The position numbers were made by a program, and so were the translations under genes. A stretch of 64,000 nt of DNA, from the NCBI GenBank assembly GCA_001775055.1, contig MFBU01000015.1:4487-68486 (forward strand), read 5' to 3'. The DNA comes from Candidatus Curtissbacteria bacterium RIFCSPLOWO2_02_41_11. Its GTDB lineage: Bacteria > Patescibacteriota > Microgenomatia > Curtissbacterales > GWA2-41-24. Shown piece by piece: positions 3,623 through 60,972 of the stretch. Position 1 is the stretch's first letter. Every line of letters starts with the position of its first letter. The notes beneath the pieces were generated by a model. The model saw only the letters and a program-made list of their open reading frames with translations. It was not told where the DNA came from and ran no database searches.

Positions 3623-6541
3623 CTAACCTATTCTAATTTCTAGCTTTGAGGATTTTATCAACCTCTTAGCCAAAGTTTCGCGCTTGATGTAATCTTCAAA
3701 TTCTTTCGGCCAAGAAGGTAAACGGACAATAATTTTCTCACTAAGATTACAGCCTGCCTCTTTTCTAGCCTGCTGAATTTGCCGAACAATTTCCCGAGCT
3801 TGCCCTTCAGCTAATGCTTGATTGCCGGCACTTTTAAGATGTGTGATATTACCGCTAACAGCAAATTCTTTCCCTATCCCTTTAAATATTCCCTCATACT
3901 CTAATTCTTTAACATTGACTTCATCTCTGAGTATTTTTAAAACGCTTTCCGAGATTGGTGCTGGTCCTTCATACGTAATATTGATTAGAGGAATTCTTAC
4001 TTTAATCTCGCTCATTTTTCTAAAGGCATGAATTACAGATGCGAGTTTTATTGCATTTTCCATGTCCTTCTCTATTTGCGGTTCTGATTTTAACTTTTCT
4101 AGATCGGGCCAGTTGGAAAGGTGAACTGATTGTTTACCTGTTAAATTCCTATATATCTCATCACTTACAAAGGGAATCATTGGCGCTAATACTTTTGAAT
4201 ACTCGGTTAATGTAATATACAGAGCTTGATAGGCATCATCTTTGTCCTGGGCATTTTCGGCTGTTGGACCAATTCTGTCTCTTGACCGTCTAACAAACCA
4301 ATTTGATACGTCTCTGATTACAAAAATTTCTGCATTTCCAATTGCATCTGCAGCATTATACCGTTCTAGGGCCTTTTGAACATTTTCTATATTTCCTCTT
4401 AATCTTGAAAGTAACCAGCGGTCTAGTACATTTACAGGTTGAAATTTATCTTTGAGGGACCAATTTTCAGTATTGGCGTAGTTTACGAAAAATGCATAAA
4501 CATTCCAAAGTCTTAAATAAAACCAACGTCTCACCTCATCTGCCCGATGGTAACCAAATAACAAATTGTCTACCGGATTCTGCCGTAGATACATCCAGCG
4601 CATAACATCAACGCCGATTTTATCTGCAGCATCGTTAAACTCGATGGCATTGCCTTTGCTTTTGTGCATTTCCTCACCTTTTTCGTCAAGAAGCGTGGCA
4701 AAACCTAAAACAGTTTTTGTGGGATTGGTGTTTTTAAGAACGGTTGACATGGCAATAAGACTGTAAAACCAATTTTTGAATTGACCAGGGAATGATTCGG
4801 TAATAAAATCGGCCGGAAACCAATCAGGCGGCATGGTTGAAAAAGGTACAATGCCGGCGTCAAGCCAAGGATTGCCAACATCGGGAATTCTGAAGGACAC
4901 TTCCCGACACTTGGAACATCTGATCTTTACCGAATCAATCCATGGTCGGTGTGGTGAGTTCCCTTCAAATTTGTCCCAGCCTTCGACTGCTTTACTCTTG
5001 AACTCTTCTTTGCTTCCAATTACCTCAAAATTACCGCATTTTGCGCATTCCCAAACGGGCAGAGCCAGACCCCAATAGCGTTTTTTGGAAATAAGCCAAT
5101 CTTGCATATTGGCAAGCCAATCAAGCTCGCGCTCCAAACCCCAAGATGGAATCCAGTTGATTTTTCTGGCAACTTTTATCATTTGTTGTCTTAAGGTCTC
5201 TTCCGACTTCTGACTTCCGACTTCTGACTTCCGATCCATGGCAATATACCATTCATCTACCACTCGCCAAACAAGTTCGGTTTTGCAGCGCCAGCAGACC
5301 GGATAACGGTGGGTATAGTCTTCAATTTTAAATAAGACGCCTTTCGCCTTTAGCTTTTCGATAACTAGGCTTGGATTTTCTTTGGCATTTTTGCCGGTTA
5401 GATCATCGAATCCTTCGATGTAGTTGGCTGATTCATCAATTGACTCAACGATGGCTAACTTTTCTTTTTTCGCCAAATCAAAATCTTCCTCACCCGCGCC
5501 AGGAGCGATGTGAACTAATCCTGTCCCCTCTTCGGCAGTAACTAGGTCTTTATCGGCAACGATTTTATGTTTGACTCCTTTAAGTGCCGGGAGTTCATCG
5601 AATACTCCTTCATAAGTAAGTCCGACTAATTCCTTGCCCTTGAGCAATTTTGGGGGTCTCTGATTAAAACCAAGTGATTTAGCTATGGTTGATTCGATGA
5701 TTAAAGATTCTCCATTGATTTTCCAAAATCCATATTTAAGCTCTGGATTAACGGCAATGGCAACATTTGATGGCAGAGTCCAGGGCGTCGTTGTCCAGAC
5801 GAGGAGGAACAATTGACCTTTGCCGCCGTTGGCGAGCCTCGCCCTTCGCGGGACTCTTGACTCTTGACTCTTGACTCTATACTTTACATAGACTGCCTTG
5901 TGAGTTATTTCCTGATATTCTTCGGTTAAAATCTCGTGCTGGGAAATGGCTGTGCCGCAGCGGGGACACCAGGGAACAGAATCTCTTCCCTTATATAAAT
6001 ATCCCTTTTGATGACAAACTTTTAAGAAATTCCAGATAGCATAGTTATTTTCATCGGATGAGGTGTGGTAGGAGTTGTCCCAGTCCATAAAATAGCCAAG
6101 ACGCTTGCTTTGTTCAGTCTGGATTTTTGAATATTTTTTGACGCGCTCTTTGCAAAGATTAACAAATTTGTCGATGCCAAATTTTTCGATATCCTTTTTA
6201 TTTTTAAAACCAAGCTCTTTTTCGACTTCGACTTCGACCCAAAGGCCCTGTTCGTCAAAGCCATTTTGAAAACGCTGTTTTGCGCCTTGCATATTGTAAA
6301 AGCGCTGCCAGAGATCCTTGTAAGTTCGGCCCCAGGCGTGGTGAACGCCCATGGGGTTGTTGGCAGTAATCGGACCGTCAAGAAAGGAGAATTTTTTCTT
6401 AGAGTTTTTGTTTTTTTCTAAATATTTTTTGACAATTCCCTCTTTATACCAATTCTCGAGCAGCCTTTTTTCCATAGCCACAAAATCCTGCTTGGGATCA
6501 ACCGGTTTAAATTTGCCACTTTTTCCTACCATGTGTGTCAT
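3623..6541 (-). CDS. ileS: isoleucyl-tRNA synthetase (class I); real start may be the second ATG at 6532 (MVGKSGK) because the first ATG lies inside the -10 box
   Basis: The HIGH-region variant is PITANNPMGVHHAWGRT and KMSKS is present as KSKGN. Zinc-knuckle-like CPRC/CWRC/CAKC/CSKC pairs are present, as is the WTTTPWTLPSN editing-domain motif. At 972 aa it contains two low-complexity insertions encoded by heptamer repeats. Confidence 0.85.
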   Translation of the reverse strand: MTHMVGKSGKFKPVDPKQDFVAMEKRLLENWYKEGIVKKYLEKNKNSKKKFSFLDGPITANNPMGVHHAWGRTYKDLWQRFYNMQGAKQRFQNGFDEQGLWVEVEVEKELGFKNKKDIEKFGIDKFVNLCKERVKKYSKIQTEQSKRLGYFMDWDNSYHTSSDENNYAIWNFLKVCHQKGYLYKGRDSVPWCPRCGTAISQHEILTEEYQEITHKAVYVKYRVKSQESRVPRRARLANGGKGQLFLLVWTTTPWTLPSNVAIAVNPELKYGFWKINGESLIIESTIAKSLGFNQRPPKLLKGKELVGLTYEGVFDELPALKGVKHKIVADKDLVTAEEGTGLVHIAPGAGEEDFDLAKKEKLAIVESIDESANYIEGFDDLTGKNAKENPSLVIEKLKAKGVLFKIEDYTHRYPVCWRCKTELVWRVVDEWYIAMDRKSEVGSQKSEETLRQQMIKVARKINWIPSWGLERELDWLANMQDWLISKKRYWGLALPVWECAKCGNFEVIGSKEEFKSKAVEGWDKFEGNSPHRPWIDSVKIRCSKCREVSFRIPDVGNPWLDAGIVPFSTMPPDWFPADFITESFPGQFKNWFYSLIAMSTVLKNTNPTKTVLGFATLLDEKGEEMHKSKGNAIEFNDAADKIGVDVMRWMYLRQNPVDNLLFGYHRADEVRRWFYLRLWNVYAFFVNYANTENWSLKDKFQPVNVLDRWLLSRLRGNIENVQKALERYNAADAIGNAEIFVIRDVSNWFVRRSRDRIGPTAENAQDKDDAYQALYITLTEYSKVLAPMIPFVSDEIYRNLTGKQSVHLSNWPDLEKLKSEPQIEKDMENAIKLASVIHAFRKMSEIKVRIPLINITYEGPAPISESVLKILRDEVNVKELEYEGIFKGIGKEFAVSGNITHLKSAGNQALAEGQAREIVRQIQQARKEAGCNLSEKIIVRLPSWPKEFEDYIKRETLAKRLIKSSKLEIRIG

Positions 6542-24069: not shown

Positions 24070-24121
24070 AATTTAAAGAGTACCACGAGTATCAAGAGTA
24101 CCACGGGTACCAAGAGTTTTT

Positions 24122-30281: not shown

Positions 30282-30369
30282 ATATTTTAAAGAGTACCAC
30301 AGCTTTTTTTTCTTTAGCCTTTGGTACTCATGGTACTATTGGTACACTTGATACTCCTTTTATTCTACC

Positions 30370-32946: not shown

Positions 32947-33893
32947 TTTTGGAGGGCAAACATAACAATTTTATCCAATAACTTAGAGTAGGAAATTCCG
33001 ATTGAGGCGGCGGATTTAGGAAAAAGGGAAACTGGGGTTAGACCGGGAATAGTGTTAACCTCCAAAACATAGACATCATTATCTTTGGTAATCATGTCGA
33101 CCCTAGCAAAACCCCGGCAGCCAAGGGTTTGGTAGGCTAAAAGAGCTGTGTTTTGGGCTTTTTTGGTTAAGGACTTTCCGATTCTGGCCGGCACAATTTC
33201 ATCGCAGAGTTTCTCATCGTATTTAGCTTCGTAATCGAAATATTCTTTTTTAGGAACAATTTCGATCAAAGGCAGGGCTTGAGGACGATCATTGCCTAAG
33301 ATCGGACAAGTGATTTCAATACCGTCAATAAATTCCTCGACTAAAGTTAAGGGACTAAAACTAAAGGCTAAGTTTAAGGCTTTTTTCAAATGCTTCTTTT
33401 TGCTAACCTTGGTTGTGCCAACTGAAGATCCTTGATTGTGGGGTTTAACAAAAACGGGTGGTTTAAATTTATGCCAAATCGGTTTTAGTTGATCGTTCTT
33501 CTTTACAATAAGATGATTGGGTACTTTTAGACCTGCATGAGTAAATAATTTCCTTGAGGAAATTTTGTCCATACCTAAGGCTGAAGCTAAAACTTTCGAG
33601 CCGGTGTAAGGAACACAAATCAATTCCAAAAAACCTTGGATAGCCCCATCTTCTCCGTATGGACCATGCATGGCGATAAAAAACAATTGACAATTGACAA
33701 TTGACAATTGACTAAGAGGATATTTTTTATTATTTAACTGGAAAGAGATGCCGTCGTTGGAAATAATAATTGGTAAAACTTCATATTTATTGGGATCGAG
33801 ATTTTTAGCCACTTCCCTACCAGAAGCCAAAGATATTTCATGTTCGGCGGATTTACCACCCATAAGAACTGCCACTCTGATTTTTTTCTTCAT
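32943..33893 (-). CDS. ddl: D-alanine--D-alanine ligase
   Basis: It has an ATP-grasp fold with the EVNTIPG motif. It contains an in-frame heptamer-repeat tract. Confidence 0.85.
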   Translation of the reverse strand: MKKKIRVAVLMGGKSAEHEISLASGREVAKNLDPNKYEVLPIIISNDGISFQLNNKKYPLSQLSIVNCQLFFIAMHGPYGEDGAIQGFLELICVPYTGSKVLASALGMDKISSRKLFTHAGLKVPNHLIVKKNDQLKPIWHKFKPPVFVKPHNQGSSVGTTKVSKKKHLKKALNLAFSFSPLTLVEEFIDGIEITCPILGNDRPQALPLIEIVPKKEYFDYEAKYDEKLCDEIVPARIGKSLTKKAQNTALLAYQTLGCRGFARVDMITKDNDVYVLEVNTIPGLTPVSLFPKSAASIGISYSKLLDKIVMFALQK

Positions 33894-39416: not shown

Positions 39417-40611
39417 TTAGTCTCCTTTCGATAGCCTTTTTAACAACTTTAAACTCATCCCAAGGATACTCTTTTTTACCGTAGGTTATACTTTTTTCGT
39501 GACTCTTACCAAAAAGTGCAACAATATCGTCTTTTTGCGCTAACTTGACGGCAAATTCGATGGCCTTTACCCGATCATAAATTTGATAAAAATCTTTATT
39601 CTCTTTTTTCCCTCTTGATGTTAATCCTTTGGCGATCTGATCACAGATATCTTCGACCTTCTCACTTCTGGGATCTTCGGCAGTTAAGACTGAAATGTCG
39701 GCGCCTTCGGCTGCAGTTTTGCCCATCAGACTTCTTTTTGTCTTATCGCGCTCTCCAGCTGCGCCGAAAACGGCAATCAATTTGGATTTGGGATTTGGAA
39801 CTTGGGATTTTATAGTTCTAAGAGATCGTTCTAGAGCATTTGGGGTATGTGCAAAATCGACGATTACCTTGAAATTCTGACCAAGATTGATCTCCTCCAT
39901 TCTGCCTAAAACTCCTTTGAAGTTATTTAAGGCCTTTTGGATTTTGGACTTATAGATACCCAAAGTACTGGTGGCTACAGCAGCAGCCAGTGCATTGGCC
40001 AAGTTGTAATCGCCGACAATTTTTAGATTGAGGGGAAAATTTTTAAGGTTAAAATCAGCCGAAGAGTTGAGAGAATAGGTAATAGCCTGACCATCTACCT
40101 TTGATTTTAGAAAATCAAATGATCTGTCATCGGCATTAAGGATTGAAAAGTTGACATTTTTAAAAAGTTTGGCTTTGGCTTGAGCATAACTTTGCCAGCT
40201 TTTGTGATAATCCAAATGCTCATGAGAAATGTTAGTGATAACCGCAACCTTAAATTTAACGAAAGCTAAGCGATTTTGATCCAAGCCATGGGAAGTCGCT
40301 TCTAATACGAAATATTGACTACCCAAATCAACCGCCTTTTTCAAAAACTTTTGGACTTGCCAAGGATTAGGCGTAGTAACATGGAAACCGGTATCAAAGG
40401 TTTTAGGACCAATTCTGGCCGCAACTGATGAAATCATAGAAACTTTGAAACCTACTGCTTTTAAGATCTCATAAATCATCTGAACGGTAGTAGTTTTGCC
40501 GTCCGTGCCGGTTACGCCAATGATAACTAAATCCTTAGATGGAAAATTGAAGATGAGAGCAGCCAAAAAAGCCTGGACAAAATGATAGTAATTTTTAATT
40601 TTCTGCCACAT
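39406..40611 (-). CDS. murE: Mur ligase, probable UDP-MurNAc-L-Ala-D-Glu--diamino acid ligase (short form, 401 aa)
   Basis: The P-loop is GVTGTDGKTTT. It sits in the dcw position between ftsI and murC. Confidence 0.65.
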   Translation of the reverse strand: MWQKIKNYYHFVQAFLAALIFNFPSKDLVIIGVTGTDGKTTTVQMIYEILKAVGFKVSMISSVAARIGPKTFDTGFHVTTPNPWQVQKFLKKAVDLGSQYFVLEATSHGLDQNRLAFVKFKVAVITNISHEHLDYHKSWQSYAQAKAKLFKNVNFSILNADDRSFDFLKSKVDGQAITYSLNSSADFNLKNFPLNLKIVGDYNLANALAAAVATSTLGIYKSKIQKALNNFKGVLGRMEEINLGQNFKVIVDFAHTPNALERSLRTIKSQVPNPKSKLIAVFGAAGERDKTKRSLMGKTAAEGADISVLTAEDPRSEKVEDICDQIAKGLTSRGKKENKDFYQIYDRVKAIEFAVKLAQKDDIVALFGKSHEKSITYGKKEYPWDEFKVVKKAIERRLNAK

Positions 40612-43153: not shown

Positions 43154-44035
43154 TTAAATTCTTTCCGCAACGCGCAATTTGGCGCTTCTGGCACGCGGAT
43201 TCGCTTCAATTTCCGAATTTTCGGGGCCGATTGGCTTTGGAGTCAAAATCTTAAGTCTCGACTCCTGCTTGAAGAATCGTTTGACTATTCCATCTTCAAG
43301 CGAGTGATAACTCACAATCACCAATCGGCCTCCAATTTCTAGCAAATCTACAGTCTGCGGTAAAGAATCTTCTAAATTTAAAAGTTCGCTATTGACAACA
43401 AGTCTTAAGGCCAAAAAAGTCTTTGTCGCCGGATGAATCCTTTTGTTTTTTCTTTTAATGTGCCTTGCGTAAACTGCCTCAACAATCTTGGCAAGTTCAG
43501 TTGTCGTTTCAATTGTTTTTACCTGACGGGCGCGACAAATAGCGTCAGCAATTGGCCAACTAAGCTCTTCTTGAGAATACGTCTTAAAAATTTCATTTAA
43601 CCTCCTTTTGTCAAAATTATTAACTAGATCAAATGCCCGCACATTAAGATTTGGATCCATGCGCATATCCAAAGGCCCCTCGTGGATAAAGCTAAATCCT
43701 CTTCTTGCTTCCTCTAGTTGATGTGACGAAACGCCTAGATCGAAAAGGATGCCGGATAGTTGACTAAAACCTTCGCTTTTGGCAATTTCCCCGATCTGAC
43801 TAAAATTCCCGCAAACCAAAACCAACTTTTGGCTTTTAGCTTTTAGCTTTTGGCTTTTTTTAATGTGCTTTATCGCTTCTGGATCCCGATCAATCCCTAA
43901 AACCTTTCCACCTCGCTTTAAAAGCTCAAATGCATGGCCTCCGCCCCCAACGGTCGCATCGATAAACAATTTCCCCCTCGCTGGATCTAAAAATTCTATT
44001 GTCTTTTGTAAAAGTACCGGCCTGTGATATTTCAC
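43154..44035 (-). CDS. rsmH: 16S rRNA (cytosine1402-N4)-methyltransferase RsmH/MraW
   Basis: The N-terminus is HRPVLLQKTIEFL and the SAM-binding motif is DATVGGGGHA. Confidence 0.9.
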   Translation of the reverse strand: MKYHRPVLLQKTIEFLDPARGKLFIDATVGGGGHAFELLKRGGKVLGIDRDPEAIKHIKKSQKLKAKSQKLVLVCGNFSQIGEIAKSEGFSQLSGILFDLGVSSHQLEEARRGFSFIHEGPLDMRMDPNLNVRAFDLVNNFDKRRLNEIFKTYSQEELSWPIADAICRARQVKTIETTTELAKIVEAVYARHIKRKNKRIHPATKTFLALRLVVNSELLNLEDSLPQTVDLLEIGGRLVIVSYHSLEDGIVKRFFKQESRLKILTPKPIGPENSEIEANPRARSAKLRVAERI

Positions 44036-47486: not shown

Positions 47487-48788
47487 TTAGGAAAATTTTT
47501 CCTCTAAGGTTTTAGCAAGTTTATCGATTTTGACTCTTTCCTGCTTCGTTGTATCACGATCGCGGATGGTAACTGTGTCATCTTCAAGAGTCTGGAAGTC
47601 GATGGTGATGCAGAATGGAGTACCGATTTCGTCTTGTGCATAGTAGCGCTTGCCGATATTGCCGCGATCGTCCCAAGCAACAGGAAGTAGTTGGTAGTTG
47701 GTAGTAAGTAGTTGGTAGATTGAACGGGCTTTTTTGACCAGATCGGGTTTGTTGGCAAGAAGCGGGAAAACGGCAATTTTAACCGGTGCCAGTTTCGGAT
47801 GAAGTTTTAAGACAATCCGATCCTTTTCCTCATGATAGGCATCAATTAAAAATGCGGTCATGGCTCTGCCTACTCCAACCGATGGTTCTATCACATACGG
47901 CACCATTTTTTTGCCTTTTTCCTCATCAAAATATGATAAATCTTGGCCACTTGCTTTGGCGTGGGCCGTAAGATCAAAGTCTGTACGATTGGCTATTCCC
48001 TCCAACTCCCCCCACTCCATGAAGGGCCAGTTGTATTCTATATCCACCGATCGAGTTGCATAATGGGCTCTTTCTGTTTCTTTGTGCTCGCGAAAGCGCA
48101 AATTTTGTTTCTTGATTCCCAGACTTATAAACCAATTCATTCTCTCCTTTTGCCAATAATCGAAGTCTTTTTCGGATTGATCTTTAAAGATAAAGTACTC
48201 CAATTCCATCATTTCAAATTCACGAACTCTGAATAAGAAATTGCCGGTGGTAATTTCGTTTCGAAAGCCTTTGCCGATTTGGGCAATTCCGAAAGGGAGT
48301 TTGACTCGCATGGTATCAACAACATTTCTGAAGTTGACAAAAATTCCTTGGGCAGTTTCCGGCCGCAGATAAGTTTCGGATGCTTTGTCTTCAACTGGAC
48401 CGATGTGAGTTTTGAACATTAGATTGAACATTTGTGGCTTTGTCCAGTTATTTTTGCCACAATTTGGGCACTTTTTATCTTTCGGCAAAATATCTTCCCG
48501 GAAACGCAAATGGCAATTTTTGCACTCAGTAAGAGGATCGGCAAAACTTTCGACATGACCGGAAGTCTGCCAAACCTTTTGATTCATTAAAATGCTGCTA
48601 TCTAAACCAACAATGTTGTCGCGTTTTCTGACAATGTTTTCCCACCAAGCAGTCTTGATATTGCCGGCGAGTTCAACCCCAAGTGGTCCTAAATCGTAGA
48701 TGCCACCAATACCGCCATAGATTTCGGATCCTGGAAAAACAAAGCCGCGACGCTTAGTTAGAGAAACTATTTTTTCAAGAGTTGTCAT
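47487..48788 (-). CDS. glyQS: glycyl-tRNA synthetase, dimeric alpha2 type
   Basis: The N-terminus is KRRGFVFPGSEIYGGIGGIYDLGPLG. Class-II motifs are present, as is a C-terminal anticodon-binding domain. Confidence 0.85.
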   Translation of the reverse strand: MTTLEKIVSLTKRRGFVFPGSEIYGGIGGIYDLGPLGVELAGNIKTAWWENIVRKRDNIVGLDSSILMNQKVWQTSGHVESFADPLTECKNCHLRFREDILPKDKKCPNCGKNNWTKPQMFNLMFKTHIGPVEDKASETYLRPETAQGIFVNFRNVVDTMRVKLPFGIAQIGKGFRNEITTGNFLFRVREFEMMELEYFIFKDQSEKDFDYWQKERMNWFISLGIKKQNLRFREHKETERAHYATRSVDIEYNWPFMEWGELEGIANRTDFDLTAHAKASGQDLSYFDEEKGKKMVPYVIEPSVGVGRAMTAFLIDAYHEEKDRIVLKLHPKLAPVKIAVFPLLANKPDLVKKARSIYQLLTTNYQLLPVAWDDRGNIGKRYYAQDEIGTPFCITIDFQTLEDDTVTIRDRDTTKQERVKIDKLAKTLEEKFS

Positions 48789-50309: not shown

Positions 50310-50464
50310 GCAACTCTAGTATCGAGTATTAAGTATTTAGTATCAAGCATTTGAGAAGATTAAATTTGGCGATATCAGCAGTTCGCCATTTGTCAAACGC
50401 AGGGCGCTCCTCTGCTAAATCATGCAATGATTTATATCAGACAAAGTGCTGATATATTTTTATG

Positions 50465-52998: not shown

Positions 52999-53102
52999 AT
53001 CCTGAAAATTTCTAATGACTAATTAGACTAATTGACCTAAATTTGGGTAATTGCGACATTGGGATTTGTTTAGAAATTAGAATAATTAGAAATTAGGTTA
53101 AT

Positions 53103-54209: not shown

Positions 54210-55329
54210 ATGATGCCACTTTCTCTCTCAACTGTCTGACAAAATTAACTCTTGAAAATCTTAAGGCATTTTGCCGACAGGTGTGACTTTTCCATTTTAC
54301 CTTAGTTTGTCTGTTAATTGCATCTTGAATAGACATGGGAGATTGATTGTTAAACAAGATGCCGGTTTTACCATTTTCAATAATCTCTGAAACTCCGCTT
54401 GTTTGATAAGCAATAACCGGTACGCCGCATGCCCCAGCTTCAACTGCCGCAATACCAAAATCCTCCTGTTGGGTAACAATTAGCCCACGGGAATTTTGAT
54501 AGAGCTCGCGAAGTTTCTCTTTAGTAACTTTACCGAGAAACTCAATTTTGTAGTTGGTAGTTGGTAGTTGGTAGTTGGTAGTTAATTTCTTGAGTCTGGT
54601 CTTATCCAGACCTGTTCCCACAATCTTGAGATTAAAATTAAGGTTTTGGGTGGCTCGAATAGCAATATCGATTTTTTTCCATTTAACTAATCGTGAGACT
54701 ACCAGATAATAATTTTGGCTTTTAAGTCTCCAATTGTGAACTTTGGCGATCTTGAAAAAGTTTAAATCCGCAAATGGGTAAATTACATCTGATTGATAAC
54801 CGTAGTGTTTTTTAAGATTTTGGGCGATATTTTGGGAATTGGCAATGTAATGATCGACTCGAGATGACGAGGCCAGATCCCATTTCTTAAGCCAGGCCAA
54901 AAATGGTTTCAGGATTAATCTGAGAATTGGCGGTAAATAATCTCTCTGGACTTTTTCATTCCACAAAAATCTCGGGAGACTATTAAGATAGCATATGTGG
55001 ACAGTTTTTGGTTTAGTGATTATTGATTTGGCAAAACGGGTAGTTGAGGAGATAACAATATCAAATTCATCAAAATTAAAACTTTCAAAGGCTAAAGGAT
55101 ATAGAGGTAAAAGGACTTTGTAGAACTTGGTCGCTAAGGGGATTTTTTGGATGAATGAGGGTCGGACCCTATTTCTGTTTATTGTGGCGGGCAATTTATT
55201 CCAGTCAACAACTGATGTGTAGATCGGGGCATCCGGCCAAATTGAAGCAATGGTCGCAAACAAACTTTCCGCTCCTCCAGCTTGCACGAAGTCATCGTGT
55301 ACTAACGCTATTTTAGGTTGATAGGACAT
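54190..55329 (-). CDS. glycosyltransferase family 4
   Basis: It has a GT4 C-terminal domain (EDFGIAAVEAGACGVPVIA). It contains a GGTAGTT heptamer tract. Confidence 0.7.
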   Translation of the reverse strand: MSYQPKIALVHDDFVQAGGAESLFATIASIWPDAPIYTSVVDWNKLPATINRNRVRPSFIQKIPLATKFYKVLLPLYPLAFESFNFDEFDIVISSTTRFAKSIITKPKTVHICYLNSLPRFLWNEKVQRDYLPPILRLILKPFLAWLKKWDLASSSRVDHYIANSQNIAQNLKKHYGYQSDVIYPFADLNFFKIAKVHNWRLKSQNYYLVVSRLVKWKKIDIAIRATQNLNFNLKIVGTGLDKTRLKKLTTNYQLPTTNYKIEFLGKVTKEKLRELYQNSRGLIVTQQEDFGIAAVEAGACGVPVIAYQTSGVSEIIENGKTGILFNNQSPMSIQDAINRQTKVKWKSHTCRQNALRFSRVNFVRQLREKVASYGERRK

Positions 55330-59775: not shown

Positions 59776-60972
59776 TCATACGAATACTGACTCGTAGACT
59801 CTCAAAGTTTCTTTTGCCATTCTTTGCCAAGAGTATTTTCTGACTTGCTGCAAACCACTGTCAATAAGTCTTGATCTGATCTTACTGTCAGATACTACCT
59901 GATTGATTTTTGAGGCGATGTCTTCTGGGTCGTTTGGATCAAAATATAAAGCCGCATCGCCATAAATTTCCTTAAGTGTTAGGATATCAGAGCAAACGAC
60001 AGGAATTTTGGCGGCCATGGCATTGAGACCGGGAATGCCGAAGCCTTCGGAAAGCGAGGGGAAAACATAGGCTTTCGCTTGGCGGAAAAGCACTGACAAT
60101 TCTCTAGCCGGAATATAGCTGGTCATAATTACCCTACCATTTAGCTTTTGATCTTGCACCTGTTTTGCAAGTCTTTGCCAGAACACGTCTCTTGAGCAAA
60201 CGAGAGTGAGTTTCAAGTTTCTGGTTTCTGGTTTATGGTTTATGGTTAAAATTTTGAATGCTTCAAGAAGCTTTTCTAGATTCTTATGCGGATAAGCATT
60301 GCCGACATAGATCATGAAGGGCGTTTTGATATGATACTCATTTAATAGTTTCGGGTTTCTAGTTTCTAGTTTCTGGTTATCAAAGTATTCTTCCTCTGCG
60401 GCTTCGTAGGTGACGACCACTTTTGAAGGATCAATTCGAAACGTACTAATGACTTCCTCTTTGATGTTTTTTGAGGGGACAATTATTTTTGCAGATTTTT
60501 TAATTGCATGGGCTATGACTTGCCGGTAAGCTAGTCTTTTGGCTTTAAAAATCAATAAGTTGCGGGCAGTTGTTGATGTTTCGGCAAATTGATGATGGAT
60601 AAGATCATGAATGGTCACAATAAATTCGCCTTTAAATTCGCTTCGCTCATGTAATCCGAGAAGGTTAAATCCGGGCGGATTATAAAAAATCGGCACATTA
60701 AAATGAGGAACATGTAAAAGGTCAAGGTTTTGGCTTCTAAAAATTTTAGGGAGTGTTACTTGCTCGATGAGGGAATACCAGGAAACATCGGCTAATATTT
60801 TTTTAAAGTTTTTGCCTAATTTGAGATAATCCCAATTCTCTTTTCGCAAAAAAATAAAATACTGATTTTGGGAATCGATCTTGACAAGATTCTGAATAAG
60901 TTTTTCCGTATATTTCCCAAGCCCGGTACCTGCCGGACCAACAAATCTGGCATCAATTCCAATTCTCACCAT
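59776..60972 (-). CDS. glycosyltransferase family 4
   Basis: The GT4 motifs are SLSEGFGIPGLNAMAAKIPVV. It has a good SD (GGAGG) and carries two heptamer tracts. Confidence 0.75.
   Translation of the reverse strand: MVRIGIDARFVGPAGTGLGKYTEKLIQNLVKIDSQNQYFIFLRKENWDYLKLGKNFKKILADVSWYSLIEQVTLPKIFRSQNLDLLHVPHFNVPIFYNPPGFNLLGLHERSEFKGEFIVTIHDLIHHQFAETSTTARNLLIFKAKRLAYRQVIAHAIKKSAKIIVPSKNIKEEVISTFRIDPSKVVVTYEAAEEEYFDNQKLETRNPKLLNEYHIKTPFMIYVGNAYPHKNLEKLLEAFKILTINHKPETRNLKLTLVCSRDVFWQRLAKQVQDQKLNGRVIMTSYIPARELSVLFRQAKAYVFPSLSEGFGIPGLNAMAAKIPVVCSDILTLKEIYGDAALYFDPNDPEDIASKINQVVSDSKIRSRLIDSGLQQVRKYSWQRMAKETLRVYESVFV

Follow-up and report, generated by a model that had tools for sequence, protein, structure and literature searches.

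Palindromic selfish DNA is reportedly found in frame within essential genes of Rickettsia, where the Rickettsia palindromic elements (RPEs) described by Ogata and colleagues in 2000 are said to add a surface peptide to the host protein while its function is kept. RPEs are about 100-150 nt long and restricted to Rickettsia. A much smaller arrangement, in which a 30-nt GC-rich hairpin element is combined with tandem arrays of a 7-nt unit, is described here for ileS, the isoleucyl-tRNA synthetase gene of Candidatus Curtissbacteria bacterium RIFCSPLOWO2_02_41_11; the DNA analysed, hereafter the window, is a stretch of 64,000 nt (GCA_001775055.1, contig MFBU01000015.1, 4,487-68,486 of the forward strand). 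Other small elements offer closer parallels in size. The small dispersed repeats (SDRs) SDR4-6 of Nostoc punctiforme, which Elhai and colleagues treated in 2008, reportedly include some hairpins, some copies in genes and some tied to heptamer repeats. The Nostoc SDRs are very small dispersed elements, of which SDR5 inserts between the third and fourth bases of the highly iterated palindrome HIP1 (PMC4390886, PMC5861425), and the second of these sources knows of no SDR-like repeats outside the Nostocaceae (PMC5861425). Repetitive extragenic palindromic (REP) sequences, together with the REPINs they form, are GC-rich imperfect palindromes of 20-40 nt that are mobilised by REP-associated tyrosine transposases (RAYTs), lie outside genes in hundreds of copies per genome and have inverted doublets as their active form (PMC3116915).

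Tandem arrays with a 7-nt unit are likewise known from bacteria, for instance as the short tandemly repeated repetitive (STRR) sequences of cyanobacteria, as GGGAATC in Xanthomonas and Nostoc and as TAACTGA in Beggiatoaceae; such arrays are in excess in intergenic DNA and in deficit in coding DNA, with one or few units each (PMC4692102, PMC4679880), and slipped-strand mispairing has been proposed for bacterial heptamer repeats generally (PMC4679880). In neuO of E. coli K1 a coding unit, AAGACTC, occurs in 3-53 highly polymorphic copies and serves as the on/off switch of an accessory gene (PMC13001214). The tandem repeats of Borgs are A-rich, occur in open reading frames (ORFs) and create disordered regions, and their unit lengths within ORFs are always divisible by three (PMC9879509). 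A literature search on Patescibacteria and the Candidate Phyla Radiation (CPR) returned no relevant description of heptamer repeats or palindromic in-frame elements.

A sequence-only reading of the window had noticed two heptanucleotide tracts and a GC-rich palindrome inside ileS and had taken them together for a single insertion of low complexity that coding constraint on the isoleucyl-tRNA synthetase (IleRS) maintains. The features are real, and one intact minus-strand ORF of 972 codons holds all three; the palindrome, however, is the core of a separate, dispersed element of 30 nt. Arrays and hairpin alike are insertions at the nucleotide level, present in non-coding DNA as well as in many unrelated genes. 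Taken together, the tracts and the hairpin are probably tolerated insertions, namely slippage arrays and a small mobile hairpin that targets them, and not adaptations of IleRS.

The host gene encodes a type-2 enzyme (E = 1.9e-160 against the Thermus thermophilus IleRS, 1ILE), is present here in a single copy, and has its nearest relatives in proteins named isoleucine--tRNA ligase from Candidatus Curtissbacteria (Microgenomates, CPR). A second assembly, ANAN16-1 scaffold_123 (151,509 nt; L001), is 99.8% identical to the window over 14.6 kb, with both tracts and the palindrome unchanged, and represents the same population. An assembly artefact is excluded because orthologous arrays are present in independent assemblies from other projects. 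The 32 differences between the window and L001 are unevenly placed: 26 fall in two short patches, one in the ileS editing domain, with 19 differences over 87 nt (5606-5692), and one near 2470, with 7 differences over 25 nt (2459-2483), and such clustering looks like short recombination tracts between strains.

Within the gene, tract 2 and the hairpin lie at one position of the protein, site A, and tract 1 lies at another, site B (coordinates of all features are given in the table below). Tract 1 had been read as (TTCYGAC)x5 at 5201-5235; it does have five units, set one base earlier by Tandem Repeats Finder (TRF), and the reported alternation of ttccgac and ttctgac holds, since the 14-mer CTTCCGACTTCTGA repeats perfectly (2.5 copies, 100% match). 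Its peptide had been given as SEVGSQKSEVGSQKSEE; the translation is MD-RKSEVGSQKSEE-TLR, with RKSEVGSQKSEE between EWYIAMD and TLRQQM. Tract 2, read as (GACTCTT)x4 at 5852-5879, is a perfect array that ends one base sooner at 3.9 copies, the last base of the fourth unit being A and not T. The peptide ...RVKSQESRVPRRARLANGGKGQ... had been correctly quoted ahead of WTTTPWTLPSN, and from tract 2 onward the coding strand reads RVKSQESRV-PRRARLANGG-KGQLFLLVWTTTPWT. The description of the tracts as in-frame is right for their net effect, which keeps the frame; individual 7-nt units shift it, and an array inside an ORF uses all three frames in turn. The palindrome at 5831-5843 is present as reported and forms the inner stem of the 30-nt element, whose G+C content is 77% by our own count against 36-44% in the 2-kb blocks of the window. 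Allowing up to two mismatches, the 13-nt palindrome has 4 matches in the window (two sites, both strands) against 0.36 expected.

The element has the consensus CCGCC-AAAG-GCGAGGCTCGCC-AAAG-GCGGC, or CCGCCAAAGGCGAGGCTCGCCAAAGGCGGC written out, from which the ileS copy departs by three mismatches; it folds into a two-tier hairpin of -16.7 kcal/mol (z = -2.85). When metagenome contigs were scanned with the pattern GCGAGGCTCGCCAANGGCGGC, matches appeared in at least 120 of them, and a 5' arm CC(G/A)C(C/T), which lies outside that pattern, is present in 62 of 111 distinct instances. Conservation falls sharply beyond positions -2 to +31, and bases further out look random. Among the 62 full copies, position -1 is C in 60, -2 is T in 41 and +31 is A in 44; copies outside arrays still have C at -1 in 31 of 32 cases, and the target therefore looks like (T)C^A. 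Most full copies (48 of 62) lie in long ORFs, 39 in sense orientation and 9 in antisense, the other 14 being non-coding. The sense copies use the three frames about equally (13/15/11) and yield, depending on the frame, PPKARLAKGG, PAEGEARQRRQ or SRQRRGSPKAA. None of the six frames of the element contains a stop codon, and its 30 nt lengthen a gene by 10 codons whichever frame they enter.

The host genes identified by Pfam are as diverse as a second IleRS, entered at another loop, and RpoC, GyrA, DnaX, PPDK, GT1, HisRS and RecJ. In the GT1 gene of locus L187 an array and the 30-nt element occupy the loop at which the GT1 of the window (59776..60972) has an array alone, the kinship of the two genes being judged by eye from the flanking peptide ..YVGNAYPHKNL..AFKI../..LVLVC... 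Two oddities were seen among the copies. The second, distant IleRS (L086, Ga0209211_10017585), which holds the element near the ..VYKELKAHN/KLANLDSVHLADWP loop, also has a complete histidine-phosphatase domain (PF00300, E = 1.8e-30) at residues 516-697, within its catalytic region. In L160 (6741-6792) two copies stand in direct tandem, 31 nt from start to start. In the loci examined there are at most two copies per locus and no regular doublets, and among viral contigs a single match was found, with no sign of a phage vehicle.

Empty and filled alleles of the same site are available for two genes. In the cluster of IleRS proteins of at least 90% identity, PRRARLANGG is present in every member that covers the region except P0252; this protein and P0003 (85% identity) read RLKSQESKV-KGQLF, without exactly the 10 codons of PRRARLANGG and with the array peptide kept. 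Similarly, the HisRS of L188 contains PPKARLAKGG, and its orthologues P0124, P0125 and P0134 (73-74% identity) lack exactly those 10 residues and keep an array-like peptide; at the DNA level one empty site shows clear A-N4-TC units (L210, for P0134) and another is degenerate (L209, for P0124). Because the alleles differ by exactly 10 codons and the array is kept in both states, the element adds exactly 30 nt, without target duplication, and it does so after the array was in place. The 7-nt repeats flanking the element might be taken for a target-site duplication; this was ruled out by the exact 30-nt difference, and the repeats are those of the pre-existing array. The lack of duplication likewise weakens the idea that the arrays themselves are stacked 7-nt insertion footprints. 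The ileS hairpin is a recent insertion, a dispersed element distinct from tract 2 that landed within the array.

The link between element and arrays extends beyond these alleles. Across exactly 30 nt, the 7-nt flanks of full copies match at a mean of 3.6 of 7 positions against 1.8 in the control, and at five or more positions in 25 of 62 copies against 4 of 62. Arrays cover only an estimated 0.16% of the surveyed DNA (about 107 arrays of 32 nt in 2.24 Mb) and yet they contain about 40% of the full copies (25/62); a stricter test, requiring at least 70% periodicity over 21 nt on both sides, leaves one case.

Among these systems, the element behaves most like an SDR with a new target. With the Nostoc SDRs (21-27 nt) it shares a length of 30 nt, sharp ends, a precise short target, no coding capacity and no known mobilising enzyme, and it fits the description of that class as 20-30-nt dispersed repeats with sharp ends and a precise insertion point. 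It differs from them in its unrelated sequence, in belonging to another phylum, in its (T)C^A target at heptamer junctions, and in being low-copy per genome but present in many lineages. Like an RPE, it is an in-frame palindromic insert in conserved genes, those listed above with IleRS counted twice; unlike one, it measures 30 nt, is nested in heptamer arrays, is read in three frames and has Microgenomates/Patescibacteria as hosts. A short GC-rich hairpin, a conserved 5' flank, strand bias and the absence of target duplication recall REP sequences, whereas its copies are single, mostly intragenic and few. Compared with a miniature inverted-repeat transposable element (MITE), the terminal inverted repeats are there (CCGCC ... 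GGCGG, 5 nt) and the target-site duplication is missing, as the IleRS and HisRS alleles indicate.

The ileS tracts belong to a lineage-wide class of heptanucleotide arrays and are not specific to ileS. The window holds nine period-7 arrays with a TRF score of at least 40; in 50 shuffles that preserve dinucleotides the mean is 0.02 per window. Exact arrays of at least three copies, searched at periods 4-15, occur at period 7 (n = 3) and once at period 6, with no other period represented. Nearly all arrays of the window are inside housekeeping genes, the exceptions being intergenic. The hosts other than ileS encode a D-Ala-D-Ala ligase, RsmH, a class II aminoacyl-tRNA synthetase, a Mur ligase and a pair of GT1 glycosyltransferases, and the unit AACTACC is common to two unrelated genes (arrays at 47687 and 54550). 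A wider survey of about 2.24 Mb of related DNA gave period-7 arrays both in long ORFs (77 unique) and elsewhere (about 30); no other period exceeds 48 arrays, compared with 107 for period 7, with the exception of period 14, the double of 7, with 57. Within ORFs and outside them alike, lengths of 31-35 nt (4.4-5 units) are the commonest, and A makes up 41% of the sense strand. A register A-N4-T-C common to all arrays was considered and rejected: the nine coding arrays of the window appear to have it by eye and seven by a consensus-unit test, and among the 77 there is only moderate enrichment.

With the known heptamer repeats these arrays share head-to-tail 7-nt units in at least three copies, the dominance of period 7, a genome-wide spread and a preferred size. 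They depart from the mostly intergenic habit and the one or few units per genome of such repeats, for about 70% (77 of ~107) lie in ORFs, essential genes included, and the unit varies by locus. The resemblance to neuO lies in a coding 7-nt unit (AAGAGTC in ileS, one base different), the use of three frames and a peptide period of seven residues; unlike neuO, the ileS tracts have 4-5 units, fixed in length among the near-identical sequences available, in an essential gene. Like the Borg repeats, the ORF arrays are non-disruptive and add hydrophilic low-complexity peptides; unlike them, they are built on a unit of 7.

Copies of the element also occur outside genes. The second core copy of the window is intergenic and terminator-like on the plus strand. 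The surrounding intergenic stretch (14530-14838, minus strand) includes about 200 nt that are conserved in L004 (6783-6980), L009 (5715-5917) and L005 (100-279) and in part in L050; a stem CCCAAGAAT..ATTCTTAGGG and a motif CTTAGGAATCCCC lie within the stretch, a strong promoter-like site is situated between it and a downstream 154-aa ORF without Pfam match, and judging from these features the stretch may be a separate small RNA. L005 carries a different GC palindrome, CCGCCAGCTGGCGG, inserted elsewhere in the conserved region. In L085, L127, L133 and L095/L096 the core lies directly 3' of tRNA-like T-arm/acceptor ends, in the order CCCGC(T), AT-rich hairpin, core and a second CCCGC(T)(CCA), an arrangement that resembles an insertion set within a duplicated tRNA 3' end. 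The possibility that the ileS insert was templated from the intergenic copy of the window was rejected since their 5' halves differ, the intergenic copy having an AT-rich hairpin there.

The likeliest alternative draws on such copies. In it, selection maintains the 30-nt hairpin as a nucleic-acid signal, which might bind a protein, act on RNA stability or termination, or belong to a small RNA, with the coding copies as side products. The conservation of the intergenic region in L004, L005, L009 and L050, the terminator-like character of the core within it, the position just 3' of tRNA-like ends in L085, L127 and L133, the good fold of the consensus, and a near-identical sequence over many contigs despite low copy number per genome all speak for it, and a functional signal would be compatible with mobility, as in domesticated REP-like elements. 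The intergenic copies may be such a signal, but as an account of the element as a whole this is unlikely. The 39 full copies that run in sense through long ORFs sit in unrelated essential genes and in three frames, the ileS copy has partly lost its outer stem, and the conserved intergenic region of L004, L005 and L009 is without the hairpin. Rfam yielded only tRNA-Val when the whole window was searched at gathering thresholds and 14400-14950 at E <= 5, leaving both the hairpin and the conserved intergenic region unmatched. No terminator-like or unusual promoter-like site was found at the ileS hairpin.

The second alternative places selection on the protein: the inserted peptides would be IleRS loops that are adaptive and specific to the lineage, serving to bind tRNA or a partner or to regulate editing, and the repeats would only reflect how such loops were built. 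Aligned with 1ILE, site A corresponds to two 5-residue gaps and site B to a 12-residue gap. An AlphaFold model of moderate quality (mean pLDDT, the predicted local distance difference test, 76.9), which served for secondary-structure context only, places site A between strands 209-223 and 244-250 and site B between helices 418-434 and 450-459, with a local pLDDT of ~55-72 at both. The CP1 editing domain (WTTTPWT) begins right beside site A. In most Microgenomates, as represented by 60 homologues and 80 genome loci (L005-L084), site A is a short turn, ..F/YKLPIKGRxNEYLLVWTTTPWT; Curtissbacteria have 5-7 extra residues there, and this organism has 10 more. At site B, MD and (Y/L)R are commonly separated by about 8 residues, and many lineages have longer inserts that are 7-residue-periodic or hairpin-encoded. 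Both segments are, as had been supposed, lineage-specific insertions at variable loops, and no unrelated IleRS carries their peptides. The two sites are places where the protein tolerates extra residues.

The ages of the insertions differ. The five-unit array of tract 1 recurs, with point differences only, in L206 (75% protein identity) and L207 (67%), and L002 has six units; the tract is old and stable, and the suggestion of long-term maintenance is borne out to this extent. It does not extend to site A, where every lineage has an array, often perfect, of a different unit: AAGAGTC here, AACCAGC, AACTCAG, GTCACTG and GTCAGTT in others, and an 8-mer in L002. Such unlike units imply turnover or homogenisation and not maintenance, and the hairpin is recent. 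Tract lengths are constant in the cluster members of at least 90% identity that cover the region and in the 99.8%-identical assembly. As a gene, ileS is a hotspot: across the 80 genome loci there are 23 arrays in 231 kb of ileS against 10 in 1.21 Mb of 10-kb flanks, a 12-fold excess, and the arrays fall in four positional clusters (nucleotide offsets ~660-695, 1295-1375, 2070-2165 and 2520-2685) with units that differ by genome.

The hotspot with its four recurrent sites, the neighbourhood of the editing domain and a tract 1 peptide conserved in relatives at 67% to 99% identity are what the adaptive interpretation can call upon. Against it, the site A peptides of close lineages are completely different (RVKSQES, LNQQPATSNQQ, KVTGHWSLVTGH, ITQNSELKTQN), the same arrays and element turn up in many unrelated proteins and in various frames, an IleRS of at least 90% identity does without the 10-residue segment, and both loops are modelled at low to moderate confidence. 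On this evidence adaptive loops are quite improbable.

Several other hairpins share these loops. In L004, L010, L058 and L063 the arrays at the same loops of ileS enclose small GC-rich hairpins, 21-33 nt long and of other sequences, except that the one in L063 is a degenerate member of the 30-nt family. Further hairpin families are TCCCTTCG..CTCAGGG and CCGTCC..GGACGG. The latter, as CCGTCC-TTC-..-TTC-GGACGG, is found at site B in L007, L017, L027, L006 and L052 and in many homologous proteins; it encodes a widespread RPS..ASDGK, its inner stems vary by genome, and it is duplicated in L017. Different hairpin sequences at one loop in different genomes, and the reuse of few permissive sites evident in the four ileS clusters, would fit the view that arrays and hairpin are unrelated, that they merely coincide at such loops, and that the hairpin formed on the spot, with template switching as one possible way, without being dispersed. 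This is very improbable indeed, given the same 30-nt sequence, unsearched 5' arm included, in more than 60 flanking contexts, its exact placement at unit junctions with the phase of the array preserved at 30 nt, and the disproportion between the share of DNA in arrays and the share of full copies found there. Finally, there is next to no chance that the tracts are contingency loci in which one-unit slippage toggles ileS, or that programmed frameshifting is needed, for although the closest known coding heptanucleotide array, that of neuO, works as such a switch (PMC13001214), ileS is essential and single-copy here, its frame is intact, its arrays have merely 4-5 units, tract length is the same in all covering cluster members and in the 99.8%-identical assembly, and tract 1 keeps five units at 67-75% protein identity.

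The reading of tracts and hairpin as tolerated nucleotide-level insertions can be cast as a sequence of steps. Arrays would arise throughout Microgenomates genomes by slipped-strand mispairing in a 7-nt register, which is their most plausible origin. Those inside genes would survive if the net length keeps the frame, if the unit is free of stops in every frame and if the 10-12 hydrophilic residues they add fall in a permissive surface loop. The hairpin would then insert after (T)C and before A, without target duplication and with a strong preference for the unit junctions of heptamer arrays. We infer that it moves, as opposed to being spread by recombination, and it would be mobilised in trans. 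A single-strand DNA reaction of HUH type, as in REP/RAYT or IS200/IS605, is a tentative and rather unlikely guess, made because of the hairpin, the short 5' target, the missing duplication and a strand bias that would fit the template of the lagging strand, provided that genes run in the direction of replication. The lack of duplication, the (T)C^A target and the sense:antisense ratio of 39:9 would be in keeping with transposition of IS200/IS605 type, if indirectly, and selection on the peptide could also give the strand bias.

A number of points weigh against this account. Slippage explains neither the period of 7 nor the ceiling of about five units, which holds in non-coding DNA too, nor how an essential gene passes through out-of-frame intermediates of +7 nt. 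The scan pattern fixed 20 of the 30 positions of the element, and the internal conservation of its copies is to that extent a matter of construction. With its outer stem weakened, the ileS copy folds no better than its shuffles (z = -1.0). Copy number, at two cores in the 64-kb window and one degenerate copy in 1.4 Mb of ileS neighbourhoods, is unlike that of classical REPs and MITEs, and no transposase or other mobilising gene was found, although none was searched for. The copies with an AT-rich hairpin, in conserved intergenic DNA or beside tRNA-like ends, hint at a host function over pure selfishness. As for a shared register, A-N4-Y-C is found on the sense strand of 38 of the 77 arrays (49%, against a null of 0.32) and on 9% in antisense, which is a mere tendency.

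A bolder proposal is possible but on balance doubtful. The Microgenomates Patescibacteria might hold a set of undescribed, ultra-small (21-33 nt) mobile hairpins that home to Y-C^A junctions of arrays without duplication and add 7-11 codons to essential genes; in its strongest form, the same site-specific single-strand nuclease or transferase would also make the A-N4-Y-C arrays.

Table. Position, strand and make-up of ileS, the hairpin element and the heptanucleotide arrays in the window
Feature	Position	Strand	Description
ileS, type-2 isoleucyl-tRNA synthetase	3623..6541	-	intact ORF, 972 codons; hosts both tracts and the palindrome
Tract 1 (site B)	5200..5234	-	TRF period 7, 5.0 copies; coding strand CGGAAGT/CAGAAGT alternating, i.e. 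(A/G)GAAGTC
Degenerate continuation of site A array past the element	5810..5821	-	coding AAAGGTC AATTG, giving KGQL; in phase with tract 2 once 30 nt are removed
GC-rich hairpin mini-element, 30 nt	5822..5851	-	coding strand CCGCGAAGGGCGAGGCTCGCCAACGGCGGC, giving PRRARLANGG; inserted between two site A array units
Inner palindrome, inner stem of the element	5831..5843		GGCGAG-C-CTCGCC; GGCGAGCCTCGCC, 6-nt arms, central C
Tract 2 (site A, upstream part)	5852..5878	-	coding strand (AAGAGTC) x3.9, perfect; encodes RVKSQESRV
Second core copy, 21 nt	14622..14642	-	GCGAGGCTCGCCAAAGGCGGC; 20/21 identical to ileS copy; intergenic
(AATTGTC) x4.3	33683..33712	-	inside D-Ala-D-Ala ligase gene
(AAATCCC-like) x4.6	39780..39810	-	inside Mur ligase gene, C-terminal domain
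(AAAAGCC/AAAAGCT) x4.7	43826..43858	-	inside rsmH/mraW
(AACTACC) x4.6	47687..47718	-	anticodon-binding domain of class II aminoacyl-tRNA synthetase
(AACTACC) x4.9, perfect	54550..54583	-	GT1 glycosyltransferase
(ATAAACC/AGAAACC) x4.4	60217..60247	-	second GT1 glycosyltransferase (59776..60972)
(AGAAACC/AGAAACT) x4.7	60346..60378	-	second GT1 glycosyltransferase, same gene as the array at 60217

Two further kinds of tandem array were seen between genes. Heptamer arrays of TTAGAAA type occur in the window at 53070-53096 and 50325-50351, in L004 at 14405-14434 and in L009 at 14361-14418. That of L004 lies between the genes for ribosomal proteins L21 and L27, just upstream of the L27 start, and that of L009 has a similar position in its locus, where the genes are unannotated; both recall the start-proximal TAACTGA arrays of Beggiatoaceae. 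Arrays of 9/18-nt units, related to each other and containing GGTAC (AAGAGTACC ACGAGTATC ...), lie at 24076-24117 and 30321-30356. Within the cell-division cluster, one separates ftsQ from ftsA and the other a Mur ligase gene from mraY, and they may be operator-like or leader elements.

If the reading of tracts and hairpin as tolerated insertions is true, low-complexity loops in conserved CPR proteins would be scars of two nucleotide-level processes and not lineage-specific adaptations, with consequences for the alignments, phylogenies and structure predictions of these proteins. Peptides spanning RVPRRARLANGGK, if detected, would prove that such an insertion is translated. The 30-nt hairpin would rank among the smallest elements with evidence of mobility, including clean empty and filled alleles in essential genes, and its presence/absence polymorphism could serve as a strain marker for groundwater metagenomes. 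The tight link between hairpin and array offers an experimental handle on the bacterial preference for 7-nt units, by way of an enzyme that recognises (T)C^A, and if the strongest hairpin-nuclease reading were true it would give a mechanistic answer to the dominance of 7-nt units among bacterial simple-sequence repeats. A phenomenon of Nostoc and Rickettsia would thereby extend to a third and very different group, one of tiny genomes in which selfish DNA is thought to be scarce.

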